This document shows, piece by piece, positions 27,388-28,923 of a stretch of 28,932 nucleotides of DNA (within the stretch, counting starts at the first letter, position 1; every line of letters starts with the position of its first letter). The notes beneath the pieces are model-generated. The model did no database searches, had not been told where the DNA came from, and worked only from the letters and a program-made list of their open reading frames with translations. Source of the DNA: a virus (taxonomy: Duplodnaviria; Heunggongvirae; Uroviricota; Caudoviricetes); IMG/VR virus record IMGVR_UViG_2740892230_000022; one strand, written 5' to 3'. The translations under genes were made by a program, and so were the position numbers.

Positions 27388-27877
27388 TCAATGCACAGCC
27401 ACAATATTTCCTGCAGGGCCACCACGATTCATCTGGTTGAAACCAGCGATCGCCACTGCGACAAAATCATCAGCGTCTCTCACCAGTCGTTCCCGCGTCT
27501 CCACTAGTTCCCGAAAATAGGCTGAGCTATGACTGCGCATTCGGGCCACCAGCAGAGGTGGCATTGCTTTTTCGATAGCTGGTAACAACGCCTGAATTTT
27601 TTTAACCGCATCAGGGGTGTCTTTCTCCACCCAGCGGAAAATTTTCTGAGTATTGCGAGCCAGGGCTTCCGGATGGCTGTCGTNNNNNNNNNNTCCAGCG
27701 GAAAATTTTCTGGGTATTGCGAGCCAAGGCTTCCGGATGGCTGTCGTCATACAGTTCAGGAAACGTCATACCCAACTCAAAATAAGCCTGGGTTATTCCA
27801 GCTGCTGGAACTTTTTCGCCATCAGGACGCGCCCAGGCATTCATCGCCATGCGGATGTGTTCATGCTTGATTTTCAT
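27388..27877 (-). CDS. ydaT: YdaT-like protein (Rac-prophage YdaT family), composite across the N10 at 27684
   Basis: MKIKHEHIRMAMNAWARPDGEKVPAAGITQAYFELGMT... resembles the recalled YdaT N-terminus (MKIKHEHI). Immediately downstream of the Cro/YdaS-like gene with ATGA overlap. Confidence 0.6.
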
Positions 27878-28128
27878 GAATCAACTCCCATCAGCTTTTT
27901 CGTAGTAGTTTTATTCCTGCCAATAGTTAAAATTGCATCGGCAGAAAATAATCCGTTTGATGCAAGAGCGATTTTTTCAGCGTAATTTGTTTCGCCGGTA
28001 TATTCTGTGCGAGGCAATTTTCCGTTATCCATCCATTTATAGATTGCTCTTTGGCTGACACCACAAACGTCGGCCACAACAGCAACGCGAACAGTTTTGA
28101 TTACATCTTCAAGTGTTTTCTGGTTCAT
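27874..28128 (-). CDS. Cro/YdaS-like HTH regulator
   Basis: ATG 28126-28128 after GAGGGTGA. 84 aa; VADVCGVSQRAIYKWMDNGKLP is an HTH. Divergent from the repressor gene. Confidence 0.7.
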   Translation of the reverse strand: MNQKTLEDVIKTVRVAVVADVCGVSQRAIYKWMDNGKLPRTEYTGETNYAEKIALASNGLFSADAILTIGRNKTTTKKLMGVDS

Positions 28129-28207
28129 ATCACCCTCACAATGTGAACTTTGAGTACATGCTATAACAGAACTGACAGTACATTCAAGAGCGAATATCAT
28201 TGAACTT
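28129..28207. promoter_or_regulatory. divergent promoter/operator region between cro-like and repressor genes
   Basis: 79-bp intergenic region with palindrome TCACAATGTGA (28136-28146) and two AGTACAT motifs (28153, 28177). The same heptamer recurs downstream of the repressor gene. Confidence 0.45.
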
Positions 28208-28627
28208 ATGGTTCATGAAGATAAAGCGCGTAAAGAGTTCGCCAGTAGGCTTGCGCTAGCCTGTGAAAACGCTGGTTATGAACAACATGGAAGGCAGGCA
28301 GAAATTGCCCGTCGAATGAAATTAACACCAAAAGCGGTTAGCAAATGGTTTAATGGCGAAACAATTCCTCGCCGGGAGAAATTAAGGGAATTAGCAACAC
28401 TAATAGGAACAACACCAACCTATCTTTTGGGAGAGGATACAGAAGAAAGTGGACAGGTACGTTTCTATCAGGAGTTAAATCCAAGACAAAAAATCATCAT
28501 TGACCTTCTGGACGAGCTCCCTGACAGTGAGACAGATGAACTTTTAAAAACTCTTGAAGAGAAAAAACAGAAGTACAATGCAATTTACGAAGAGTTAGCA
28601 CGAAAGAAAAAACAAAAAGCCTCTTAA
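28208..28627 (+). CDS. cI/RacR-like HTH repressor (no peptidase domain evident)
   Basis: 139 aa; AEIARRMKLTPKAVSKWFNGETIPRREKLRELATLIGTTPTYLLGE is an XRE-type HTH. Divergent from cro/ydaS-ydaT. Confidence 0.7.
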   Translation: MVHEDKARKEFASRLALACENAGYEQHGRQAEIARRMKLTPKAVSKWFNGETIPRREKLRELATLIGTTPTYLLGEDTEESGQVRFYQELNPRQKIIIDLLDELPDSETDELLKTLEEKKQKYNAIYEELARKKKQKAS

Positions 28628-28923
28628 ACCAGCATAAATCCGGTAGCGCCTTCCTCCGGGTTTGTGCTTCACTTTATCCCATCTCATTTTTTTACACACA
28701 AAATGTACTAAAAGTACTTTACAACAATGAACGAAAAGTACATTATATACCTGCCACCACCCCGCCCCACAGAATGCAGGGCAATACTTCGAGTTACCAG
28801 GCAGTGGTCAGGGGTTAAGTAGCCAGCCCGAGGCGTAAGAACATGACGGCAGGGTTCAACTTTAATAACTATGCAGCAGGTTTTTGTTCCGCTACCCCGG
28901 CGTTAAGGGGAAATGAGGTCAGC

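Follow-up and report, generated by a model that had tools for sequence, protein, structure and literature searches.

The locus analysed here is very probably the switch for immunity (lysis or lysogeny) in a lambdoid prophage resembling Tritos and Qin, with parts for DNA recognition of the type found in phage HK022. By its sequence the switch is of the ordinary lambda-like type common in E. coli, a mosaic of a known kind, and its unusual point is a short DicA-like repressor tail in place of the SOS-cleavable domain. This reading is based on sequence features, homologies and conservation, which were observed directly and from which operator binding, promoter use, a leaderless start, cooperativity and the induction route are predicted. 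The window, i.e., the whole stretch of DNA that was analysed (28,932 nucleotides), is a heavily gapped scaffold, and the cassette may come from a defective prophage and is linked only uncertainly to the remainder of the window.

A lambdoid immunity region with a repressor gene divergent from a Cro-like gene had been proposed for this DNA in an earlier note, and this proposal is supported; the divergent pair is real, as is the ATGA overlap between the cro-like and the ydaT-like gene at 27874–27877 (Table 1). In the window the ydaT-like gene is broken by a 10-N scaffold gap at 27684–27693 with a duplicated flank (27631–27683 vs 27695–27747, 96% identical), and on both sides of a second gap at 27318–27327 the 3′ end of ydaT is repeated in copies that are 89% identical. 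These gaps and duplicated flanks are an assembly artefact and not biology; after removal of the gap and one duplicate copy the gene encodes a 141-aa protein. The earlier note mentioned neither the scaffold gaps nor the exact YdaT box, the 24-bp phasing of the operator pairs or the third operator, which lies over the start codon of the repressor.

Table 1. Coordinates of the features of the switch (promoters and operators are predictions)
Feature	Position	Strand	Description
ydaT-like gene (putative CII analogue)	27388..27877	-	split by 10-N gap and duplicated flank
YdaT box	27867..27884	.	TTGATTTTCATGAATCAA; spans cro stop codon and first ydaT codons
Cro-like gene, 84 aa	27874..28128	-	60% identical to HK022 Cro over 73 aa, E 1e-33
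Candidate operator S1 (OR1-like by position)	28143..28159		GTGAACT TTG AGTACAT; 13/14; over predicted PR start region
Predicted PR (cro-ydaT-replication genes)	28160..28187	-	TTGAAT (28187..28182) - 16 nt - TATAGC (28165..28160), TG before it
Candidate operator S2 (OR2-like)	28167..28183		CAGAACT GAC AGTACAT; 12/14; 24 bp from S1
Predicted PRM	28172..28200	+	CTGACA - 17 nt - TATCAT; promoter scan 10/12
Candidate operator S0 (OR3-like)	28200..28216		TTGAACT TAT GGTTCAT; 12/14; spans repressor start codon (28208)
Repressor gene, 139 aa	28208..28627	+	HK022-CI-like helix-turn-helix (~1-78) and DicA-like helical tail (~85-139)
Candidate operator S3 (OL2-like)	28703..28719		ATGTACT AAA AGTACTT; 13/14; abuts and overlaps PL -35
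Predicted PL (leftward early operon)	28718..28746	+	TTTACA - 17 nt - CATTAT; promoter scan 9/12
Candidate operator S4 (OL1-like)	28727..28743		ATGAACG AAA AGTACAT; 13/14; 24 bp from S3
Conserved PL-operon leader	28757..28924	+	outside the exchangeable immunity cassette; ydfA start codon at 28925

The Pfam search of the repressor returned HTH_3 only, and Peptidase_S24, which occupies residues 101–223 of HK022 CI, was not found in it. Residues 4–75 are 58% identical to HK022 CI (E 5.5e-32), with the recognition helix TPKA(V/I)SKWFNGE common to both proteins (TPKAVSKWFNGE vs TPKAISKWFNGE), whereas at the C-terminus, where HK022 CI has its S24 domain for autocleavage and oligomerisation, the repressor ends in a DicA-like helical tail of 55 residues; residues 90–137 are 32% identical to the C-terminal residues 85–134 of DicA (E 2.7e-7). 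The cleavable S24 version is carried by HK022 and by Raoultella and Klebsiella relatives and the version with the DicA-like tail by E. coli and Salmonella, a natural domain shuffling in which one DNA-recognition domain with its operators is combined with two C-termini. The RacR-like identity given to the repressor in the earlier note was not borne out, as BLASTP matches it to RacR over 33 helix-turn-helix residues only (E 1e-3), and the PDB search matched it to none of the solved PaaR2-like structures.

Because the DicA-like tail replaces the S24 autocleavage domain, induction of the switch should not use RecA-stimulated self-cleavage. The same RecA-cleavage-independent induction is expected of the K-12 prophage Qin, whose short repressor DicA is not RecA-cleavable; the antirepressor Rem and spontaneous switching relieve its repression (PMC10448788). 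No homologue of Rem was found by tblastn in the window or in the Tritos and L002 stretches, and no LexA box of the form CTGT-N8-ACAG is present in the window. In the LF82 lysogen the Tritos orthologue of the repressor is transcribed 24-fold over the prophage background (PMC9928086).

The Qin system (DicA/DicC/dicBp) resembles this locus also in other respects: its repressor is of similar length and likewise without S24, the C-terminal tails are homologous, an identical ydfABC-dicF-dicB operon stands under a leftward promoter (in complete relatives of the cassette the downstream operon is ydfA(-ydfB-ydfC-dicF-dicB), as in Qin), and the last ~45 bp before ydfA are in common. The DicA model NF007257 is moreover the best NCBIfam match of the repressor, with positions 20–132 of the 135-position profile covered. 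These likenesses would suit a DicA/DicC orthologue with DicA specificity, serving mainly as the switch for the dicB/dicF cell-division inhibitors of a cryptic prophage; such an identity is nevertheless very unlikely, since the model score of 56.8 bits is far under the cutoff of 101 and the DNA-binding domain is 29% identical to DicA vs 58% to HK022 CI (for the repressor, 28.6% identity to K-12 DicA). Furthermore, the Qin operators are of another sequence (TGTTAG...CTAACA type) and the intergenic motif is not shared, the Cro partner has no match to DicC, and ydaT is absent from Qin.

The heptamer AGTACAT had been described in the earlier note as a repeated motif flanking the repressor gene in the manner of OR and OL, and its role in candidate operators is supported by clustering, phasing and homology to HK022. 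The exact copies on the plus strand stand where they had been placed (28153–28159, 28177–28183, and 28737–28743), while the complement and the near-match were each placed 10 bases off: ATGTACT lies at 28703–28709 and not at 28693, and AGTACTT at 28713–28719 and not at 28703. In the whole window 8 exact copies are present against 1.8 ± 1.3 in shuffles, none of 100 shuffles reaching 8; four of them flank the repressor gene and four lie outside the control regions. Among the latter, the copies at 20068 and 20147 are on opposite sides of the scaffold gap 20091–20100, from which we infer one site doubled by duplicated gap flanks, as seen at other gaps, and the copy at 27223 sits in a duplicated, diverged contig end.

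The heptamer makes up half of the 17-bp pseudo-palindrome ATGWACT-N3-AGTWCAT, of which three sites (S1, S2, and S0) are located between the divergent genes and two (S3 and S4) after the repressor gene. In the 28.9-kb window, five of the six sites scoring at least 12/14 fall into the two control regions, where 0.4 sites are expected per shuffle, and only the fifth site is an independent hit, because the consensus was derived from four of the five. The sixth site (2153–2169, 12/14) is far from the switch and agrees with the 0.4 sites per window expected by chance. The spacing of 24 bp is the same in the pairs S1/S2 and S3/S4, and the sites overlap the predicted PR, PRM, and PL, the last two being the two promoters found by the scan.

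Each of these sites has a counterpart in HK022. S1 aligns with GTGAACTTATGGTTCAT and occupies the same place in four diverged relatives; S2, which falls within the spacer of PR and covers the predicted PRM -35, aligns with CGGAACTGATAGTACAG and shows no variation in 83 related loci; S0, also invariant in the 83 loci, is identical in 16 of 17 positions to the HK022 site TTGAACTTATGGTTCAA, which likewise contains the cI ATG. At the other side of the repressor gene the counterpart of S3 is ATGTACTATTGGTACTT in the same relative place, and that of S4, which extends over the spacer of PL and into the first half of its -10, is ATGAACTTTAAGTACAT. The variation of S3 in the 83 loci lies mostly in the three central nucleotides and at the inner edges. 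Over these loci natural variation is depleted in the half-sites as a weak trend (Fisher p 0.05–0.17), weak because the loci are nearly identical, and therefore diverged relatives were relied on for conservation. The OR pair and the OL pair are kept in relatives with repressors 89%, 65%, 62%, and ~62% identical (the last with an S24 domain), the OL pair even where other genes intervene between the repressor gene and OL; a pair of the S3/S4 type with 24-bp spacing is found also in Salmonella, Raoultella, and metagenome relatives.

Given that the motif is only seven bases long, that half of its copies in the window are outside the control regions, and that the enrichment test on natural variation is weak, the heptamer might be suspected of having no operator role and of recurring because promoter elements are shared or because AT-rich intergenic DNA yields it by chance. 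Such an origin is extremely improbable in view of the full 17-bp pattern, which is strongly clustered, has the 24-bp phasing in both regions, shares homology with the HK022 operator regions, and is kept in relatives with diverged surrounding DNA.

The closest operator sequence and layout thus belong to HK022 (GenBank AF069308; cI, cro, OR1-3, OL1-3, PRM/PR/PL). As in HK022, three sites lie between cro and the repressor gene, the third holding the repressor ATG, and a site pair 24 bp apart lies over PL with the -35 TTTACA. The DNA at 28033–28368 is 72% identical to the HK022 cro-OR-cI 5′ region and that at 28687–28747 is 80% identical to HK022 OL/PL. The pattern scan of HK022 itself returned three OR sites and two OL sites and, in addition, one at a centre-to-centre distance of 53 bp from OL2 and one ~270 bp beyond OR, just after cro. 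This result fits the published description of the HK022 CI operators, according to which OL2 and OL3 are 53 bp apart, a further operator lies ~300 bp downstream of OR, and OL-OR looping was demonstrated (PMC8053113); the HK022 operator positions used here are those of this pattern scan and of that secondary description (PMC8053113). Several parts of the HK022 switch are nevertheless different here. The operator after cro (CGGTACTAAAAGTACAT in the HK022 scan) has no counterpart of at least 11/14 between 27388 and 28143, and no third OL site of at least 11/14 is present; the lambda-type CII (PF05269) of HK022 is replaced by YdaT, and where HK022 has Nun and its own PL leader, another conserved leader and the ydfA-dicB operon stand here.

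The Cro-like gene corresponds to HK022 in the same manner (Table 1), residue 1 of HK022 Cro matching the start of the 84-aa protein and not that of the 108-aa ORF starting at 28200, and its Shine-Dalgarno sequence GAGGG (complement of 28133–28137) is 5 nt upstream of the ATG. The protein also matches PHROG 35 (E 7e-14). From the Cro/YdaS-like designation of the earlier note only the first half can be retained, since the protein has no match to Rac YdaS, and in Pfam no YdaS hit (PF15943) was obtained at E ≤ 0.01; the PDB search with this protein gave no match. The palindrome TCACAATGTGA, which had been noted over the ribosome-binding region of this gene, is present at 28136–28146 and overlaps the Shine-Dalgarno sequence by 2 nt, but is incidental. 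Palindromes with 5-nt arms number six in the region against 2.8 ± 1.6 in shuffles, which is the chance level; of the six, two are copies due to the gap duplications and another is the core of an operator. As a regulatory site TCACAATGTGA was rejected owing to this frequency, and it is not kept in the HK022, Salmonella, and Raoultella relatives.

The predicted promoters are arranged around these sites. PR was read by eye and is below the threshold of the promoter scan, an alternative being an 18-nt spacer to TAGCAT; the homologous columns of HK022 contain TTGACT with CATAAT or TAATAT. A distance of 7 nt separates the end of the predicted PRM -10 from the repressor ATG, and the repressor mRNA is therefore predicted to be leaderless or nearly so; no Shine-Dalgarno sequence was found before the repressor start at 28208, and the spacing from the -10 to the ATG is kept in all five relatives. 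The HK022 element homologous to this -10 bears the label “PM -10” in the supplement of a published study (PMC8053113), and paaR2 and lambda cI are precedents of leaderless repressor genes (PMC8630535). Since the predicted PRM -35 lies inside S2 (centre at about -33), occupancy of S2 should repress and not activate PRM. The -35 of the predicted PL, TTTACA, is identical in five relatives including HK022, and the genes under this promoter are ydfA and those following it here, and ydfABC-dicF-dicB-ydfD-recE-xis-int in the complete relatives (Tritos and one RefSeq genome).

The leader that follows PL is common to phages with other repressors, including those of the Rac type (87–99%), and to an Actinobacillus phage (76%), and has no BLAST similarity to the HK022 PL leader. 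A structured RNA in it, for example of the put type, was considered and rejected, as its minimum free energy is no better than that of shuffles (z +0.9) and in the RNAalifold analysis of five homologues the covariation term was positive, i.e., unfavourable, and many pairs were broken. Rfam provided no match in or beside the switch, either in the whole window at gathering thresholds or in 28600–28932 at E ≤ 1.

A genuine YdaT-family gene follows cro, as the earlier note had stated. Its product belongs to Pfam PF06254 YdaT_toxin (E 1e-9, 39.1 bits vs cutoff 21) and to PHROG 163, “CII-like transcriptional activator” (E 6e-45), and it is ~96% identical to PDB 3C4R (E 5e-89), matches 8BT1, the YdaT of CP-933P (E 7e-78), and is 31–33% identical to Rac YdaT. 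The framing of ydaS-ydaT as a toxic pair, however, does not transfer to this locus, because the YdaT here is of the CP-933P subtype, which is reported to be a non-toxic CII-like activator (PMC8630535, PMC9986795), and the authors of the CP-933P study concluded that YdaS-YdaT is not a toxin-antitoxin pair (PMC8630535). The YdaT box is the sole exact match to TTGATT-N6-AATCAA in the window, none of 100 shuffles containing one, and is identical in the 83 related loci whichever YdaT type follows. In CP-933P the footprint of YdaT is this same TTGATT-N6-AATCAA at the end of ydaS (PMC9986795), and in Rac, where the box is almost the same, racR is activated from a reverse promoter inside ydaS (PMC11879457). 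By analogy with the PRE activation by YdaT published for both prophages (PMC8630535, PMC11879457), YdaT is presumed to activate, from this box, a PRE-like promoter that transcribes towards the repressor; the position of a PRE promoter could not be read from the sequence. An inverted repeat at 28209–28227 (I2) with weak similarity to the YdaT box is better explained as operator S0.

The K-12 prophage Rac (RacR/YdaS/YdaT) has the same gene order and orientation, a YdaT-family third gene, a nearly identical YdaT box, and the conserved PL leader in its racR-ydaG gap; in 36 of the 83 related loci the cassette is followed by a Rac-type YdaT, and toxicity of derepressed Rac ydaS/ydaT is published. 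It was on this likeness that a Rac-type module could be supposed, in which the repressor restrains toxic ydaS-ydaT and toxin-antitoxin or addiction control is the main function. The probability of such a module is very low, because RacR and YdaS have no homology to the repressor and Cro of this locus beyond the helix-turn-helix, both of the latter are clearly of HK022 type, YdaT of the CP-933P/3C4R type was reported without toxicity (PMC8630535, PMC9986795), and a viable phage carries the cassette.

The CP-933P system of E. coli O157:H7 (PaaR2/YdaS/YdaT) follows, by its published description, the same logic as the HK022-type switch proposed here (PMC8630535, PMC9986795). Shared are the leaderless repressor gene (predicted here) divergent from a cro-analogue that is followed by ydaT, the operator sets of OR and OL type, and YdaT as a CII analogue (putative here) via TTGATT-N6-AATCAA at the end of the cro-analogue. 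The operator sequence is unlike that of CP-933P, whose repeat consensus is GTTTAGTAA, and the paaA2-parE2 toxin-antitoxin pair located after the repressor in CP-933P is absent here.

The same cassette including the operators is present in phage Tritos (prophage 3 of the AIEC strain LF82; OV696610) with 97.9% DNA identity over 27700–28932, and no functional difference is expected. In the Tritos annotation the genes are given as “CI repressor”, “Cro” (the longer 108-aa ORF), and, for ydaT, “Rha family regulator”. Tritos is a viable, spontaneously induced siphovirus for which virions and plaques were obtained (PMC9928086), and in a CRISPRi preprint the knockdown of LF82 prophage repressors, Tritos being one of four, was detrimental across phages. 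The cassette was found in ~1,041 of 5,426 complete E. coli genomes; the repressor scan of genome contigs gave a single identical locus, in Shigella, and that of viral contigs gave 80 loci, all 99–100% identical.

On these grounds the following working of the switch can be proposed. In the lysogen the 139-aa repressor would be made from a leaderless or near-leaderless PRM transcript starting at its own ATG and would bind the 17-bp ATGWACT-N3-AGTWCAT sites by its HK022-CI-like helix-turn-helix domain, probably cooperatively because the sites are paired 24 bp apart. Occupancy of S1 and S2 would occlude PR (cro, ydaT, and the replication genes), and occupancy of S3 and S4 would occlude PL (ydfABC-dicF-dicB and the recombination, excision, and integration genes), while S0 with its start codon may cap repressor synthesis at high occupancy by negative autoregulation and may also be a target of Cro. 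When repression fails, by spontaneous switching or by an antirepressor as described for DicA, the HK022-Cro-like protein would act on the same sites and PRM would be shut. After infection YdaT, a putative tetrameric CII analogue, would bind its box at the cro/ydaT overlap and turn on a promoter reading back through cro into the repressor gene.

In summary, nothing in this switch is surprising for the specialist in lambdoid phages, and the main use of the analysis is in annotation: a very common cassette that is now labelled only “helix-turn-helix domain-containing protein” can be read as an HK022-type switch with coordinates for operators, promoters, and the YdaT box. It leads to the prediction of cross-immunity with HK022 and of induction without repressor self-cleavage, which bears on the timing of the expression of the dicF/dicB division inhibitors. 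Taken jointly, the data allow the tentative suggestion, to which we give somewhat less than an even chance, that the short repressor is a natural SOS-blind HK022 immunity repressor which couples prophages via shared operators. If this is true, strains with the cassette (about one in five sequenced E. coli) would be immune to phages of HK022 immunity, and the cleavable HK022-type CI of co-resident or incoming phages would cross-repress PR and PL of this switch, including dicF/dicB. Separate prophages would then be coupled by shared operators, with one of them uncoupled from induction by DNA damage.

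The third open reading frame (ORF) of the immunity region, which the earlier note had called YdaT-like, is a bona fide YdaT. It hits Pfam PF06254 as well as PHROG 163 ("CII-like transcriptional activator"), is ~96% identical to PDB 3C4R, and aligns with 8BT1 (CP-933P YdaT) at E 7e-78. Its frame is broken in the window, a scaffold interrupted by 34 gaps of exactly 10 N each. Because gaps with duplicated flanks lie within or adjoining this ORF (27684-27693, between 53-nt copies 96% identical, and 27318-27327, between 157-nt copies 89% identical), the break is an assembly artefact, and deletion of the gap and one duplicate copy restores an intact 141-aa protein. 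The flanks are diverged (89-96% identical) at both gaps examined, and a further example of such a 10-N gap lies at 20091-20100. The scaffold suggests that contig ends of paralogous lambdoid prophages were joined unmerged; close to the gaps, disrupted genes and some of the repeats are artefacts, and it is uncertain whether sequences on either side of a gap are linked. At 1140-3143 the window carries four tRNA genes, as two near-identical pairs ~1.39 kb apart, together with the sRNAs STnc100 (2874-3082) and AgvB (3084-3143, minus strand), as is usual for the late-promoter region in lambdoid prophages of the EHEC type; the doubling of the tRNA pair may be another assembly effect.

Features of the immunity region, with predicted promoters and operators (S0-S2, OR-like; S3 and S4, OL-like)
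Feature	Coordinates	Strand	Sequence or remark
Repressor ORF	28208-28627	+	139 aa
cro-like ORF	27874-28128	-	84 aa
Third (ydaT-like) ORF	extends to 27388	-	start overlaps cro-like stop as ATGA, 27874-27877
Predicted PR (cro-like gene)	28187 to 28160	-	TTGAAT, 16 nt, TG-n-TATAGC
Predicted PRM (repressor gene)	28172-28200		CTGACA-17-TATCAT; promoter scan
Predicted PL	28718-28746		TTTACA-17-CATTAT; directed away from repressor gene; promoter scan
S1	28143-28159		GTGAACT-TTG-AGTACAT
S2	28167-28183		CAGAACT-GAC-AGTACAT
S0	28200-28216		TTGAACT-TAT-GGTTCAT; holds repressor start codon; missed by the earlier note
S3	28703-28719		ATGTACT-AAA-AGTACTT
S4	28727-28743		ATGAACG-AAA-AGTACAT

The assignment of the other two genes to the Rac family was not sustained. 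The repressor matches only helix-turn-helix models in Pfam, where no S24 peptidase domain was found, and its RacR likeness is confined to 33 residues, while the cro-like protein gave no YdaS or DicC match; RacR/YdaS membership was thus rejected, and the toxin framing was judged not right. Membership in DicA as defined by NCBIfam was also rejected: DicA is the best-scoring NCBIfam model, yet its 56.8 bits fall short of the cutoff (101). In the Tritos record Cro is a 108-aa ORF from an upstream ATG at window 28200 (27874-28200, minus strand; 6175-6501 in the Tritos stretch L001), which falls among the operators; the 84-aa start at 28128 is favoured by RefSeq, by where the Shine-Dalgarno lies and by alignment with HK022 Cro.

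The motif AGTACAT occurs in eight exact copies in the window against 1.8 expected. Four belong to the immunity region (28153, 28177 and 28737 on the plus strand, 28703 on the minus strand), with AGTACTT at 28713; therefore the positions 28693 and 28703 assigned earlier were 10 bases off, and the remaining ones were correct. Among the outside copies, 20068 and 20147 bracket a scaffold gap and are taken as one site doubled by its flanks, 27223 sits in a duplicated, diverged contig end, and 2163 is compatible with chance. Every heptamer is matched, 3 nt away, by a degenerate inverted copy and so forms half of a 17-bp candidate operator. When the window was scanned with the pattern ATGWACT-N3-AGTWCAT (score out of 14), six sites reached at least 12, five of them S0-S4, against 0.4 per shuffled window; S0 is the sole independent hit, because the consensus was built from the other four. 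The spacing is 24 bp for both S1-S2 and S3-S4. The idea of OR and OL was supported, with 17-bp sites clustered on both sides of the repressor gene in an HK022-like manner. The palindrome TCACAATGTGA is not conserved in the diverged relatives, and palindromes this large turn up in the region about as often as expected by chance.

The same sites are present in the HK022 control regions. In OL, HK022 has AAAATGTACTATTGGTACTTTACATTAATGAACTTTAAGTACATCATAAGCC and the window AAAATGTACTAAAAGTACTTTACAACAATGAACGAAAAGTACATTATATACC; the HK022 OR reads GTGAACTTATGGTTCAT...CGGAACTGATAGTACAG...TTGAACTTATGGTTCAA, with spacing equal to that of the window and the cI ATG inside the third site. By BLAST the DNA is 72% identical to HK022 at 28033-28368 (spanning OR and the 5' ends of cro and the repressor gene) and 80% at 28687-28747. 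HK022 Cro is 60% identical to the cro-like protein (E 1e-33), and the HK022 CI N-terminal domain is 58% identical to repressor residues 4-75 (E 5.5e-32), with one conservative change between the recognition helices (TPKAVSKWFNGE against TPKAISKWFNGE). For repressor residues 90-137 the sole match is the DicA tail (32%, E 2.7e-7), and HK022 CI has Peptidase_S24 at 101-223; thus the repressor combines, as a mosaic, a DNA-binding domain of HK022 type with a tail of DicA type. The pattern scan of HK022 recovered three OR and two OL sites, and extra sites centred 53 bp from OL2 and just past cro, ~270 bp from OR. These agree with what PMC8053113, on the authority of Carlson and Little 1993, summarizes for the HK022 CI operators: cooperative binding to adjacent sites, an OL2-OL3 distance of 53 bp, an operator ~300 bp downstream of OR, and demonstrated OL-OR looping. 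The cassette resembles HK022 in the features compared; the exceptions are the S24 domain, the far-right operator and a lambda-type CII.

The promoter scan of 27300-28932 gave only two candidates, PRM and PL, each overlapping operator sites; the predicted PR, under the scan threshold, is read for the cro-like gene from the sequence. The predicted PRM -10 ends 7 nt before the repressor ATG (28208), with no Shine-Dalgarno, which implies a leaderless repressor mRNA. The PRM assignment is supported by homology, since in HK022 the element immediately before the cI ATG is labelled "PM -10" (PMC8053113 supplement). The predicted PRM -35 lies inside S2, and therefore simple lambda-like activation from S2 is unlikely. 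Past the repressor stop codon (28636-28672), a weak CCGG...CCGG hairpin precedes GTTTGTGCTT and could be a leaky terminator between the repressor transcript and PL; it was not called by the scan, and its natural variants alter chiefly the loop.

In the proposed mechanism the repressor would block PR from S1/S2 and PL from S3/S4, S0 occupancy would limit PRM, Cro would use these sites to the opposite effect, and YdaT would take the part of CII in establishment. As the repressor has no S24 domain, induction is predicted to be independent of RecA-stimulated cleavage. Relief of DicA comes from the antirepressor Rem and from spontaneous switching, while mitomycin C does not induce it (PMC10448788); neither a Rem homologue nor a LexA box was found in the window.

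In CP-933P the YdaT footprint is TTGATT-N6-AATCAA, where the cro-analogue gene ends (PMC9986795), and the Rac box is described as almost identical and as activating racR via a reverse promoter inside ydaS (PMC11879457). The exact box occurs once in the window (27867-27884), spanning the stop codon of cro and the initial codons of ydaT, and no shuffle had a match. The 83 loci with this repressor carry either CP-933P-type (47) or Rac-type (36) YdaT, and the switch point is the box with the common first eight codons (MKIKHEHI), the junction being window 27860-27884 in related loci L006-L085; box and codons are a neat recombination linker. Homology to phages with other repressors starts at ~28757. 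According to these two limits, an exchangeable immunity cassette extends over ~27860-28757, containing cro, OR, the repressor gene and OL/PL. The adjacent ~170-nt PL-to-ydfA leader (28757-28924) is a conserved flank in phages with quite different repressors, being common to Tritos, Evi, RacR-type 683R6 and K-12 Rac (racR-ydaG gap, L004), 76% identical in an Actinobacillus pleuropneumoniae phage, and seen at L086 2501-2652; it had no Rfam match, folds no more stably than shuffled sequence, and gained no support from covariation.

A protein search gave short repressor relatives (138-151 aa, 62-89% identical) in E. coli and Salmonella, and long ones (235-240 aa, with S24) in Raoultella, Klebsiella and others, which share only the N-terminal domain. 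The cro/repressor intergenic site pair, 24 bp apart, and the second 24-bp pair over a TTTACA -35 farther downstream were each kept in all four loci examined, and in every one of them the distance from the -10 to the repressor ATG is conserved as well. The OL pair is retained despite genes inserted between it and the repressor gene, the position of rexAB in lambda: in Salmonella a HigB-toxin-like gene and an HTH gene (L092 3053-3720, L093 3088-3755), and in Raoultella a 480-aa AAA ATPase (PF13476/AAA_15/AAA_21; L097 3308-4750), possibly a defence gene.

In complete relatives ydfA-ydfB-ydfC-dicF-dicB-ydfD-recE-xis-int lie 3' of the repressor gene, a context matching the K-12 Qin left arm, and replication genes come after ydaT. 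The segment 27700-28932 was found at ≥80% coverage in 1,041 of 5,426 complete E. coli genomes, and the exact repressor and Cro sequences each occur on at least 1,000 contigs under generic names only. The segment is 97.9% identical in phage Tritos, strain LF82, where the same cassette is already present and generically annotated; Tritos forms virions and plaques, and in the lysogen its repressor gene is transcribed 24-fold over the prophage background (PMC9928086).

The closest known system is HK022 for DNA recognition, CP-933P for the ydaT part and overall logic (PMC8630535), and Qin DicA for the repressor tail and leftward operon. We file the cassette as a mosaic member of the lambdoid immunity regions. 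No paper linking it to HK022 was found in the literature searched, and the link is an expected outcome of lambdoid mosaicism.
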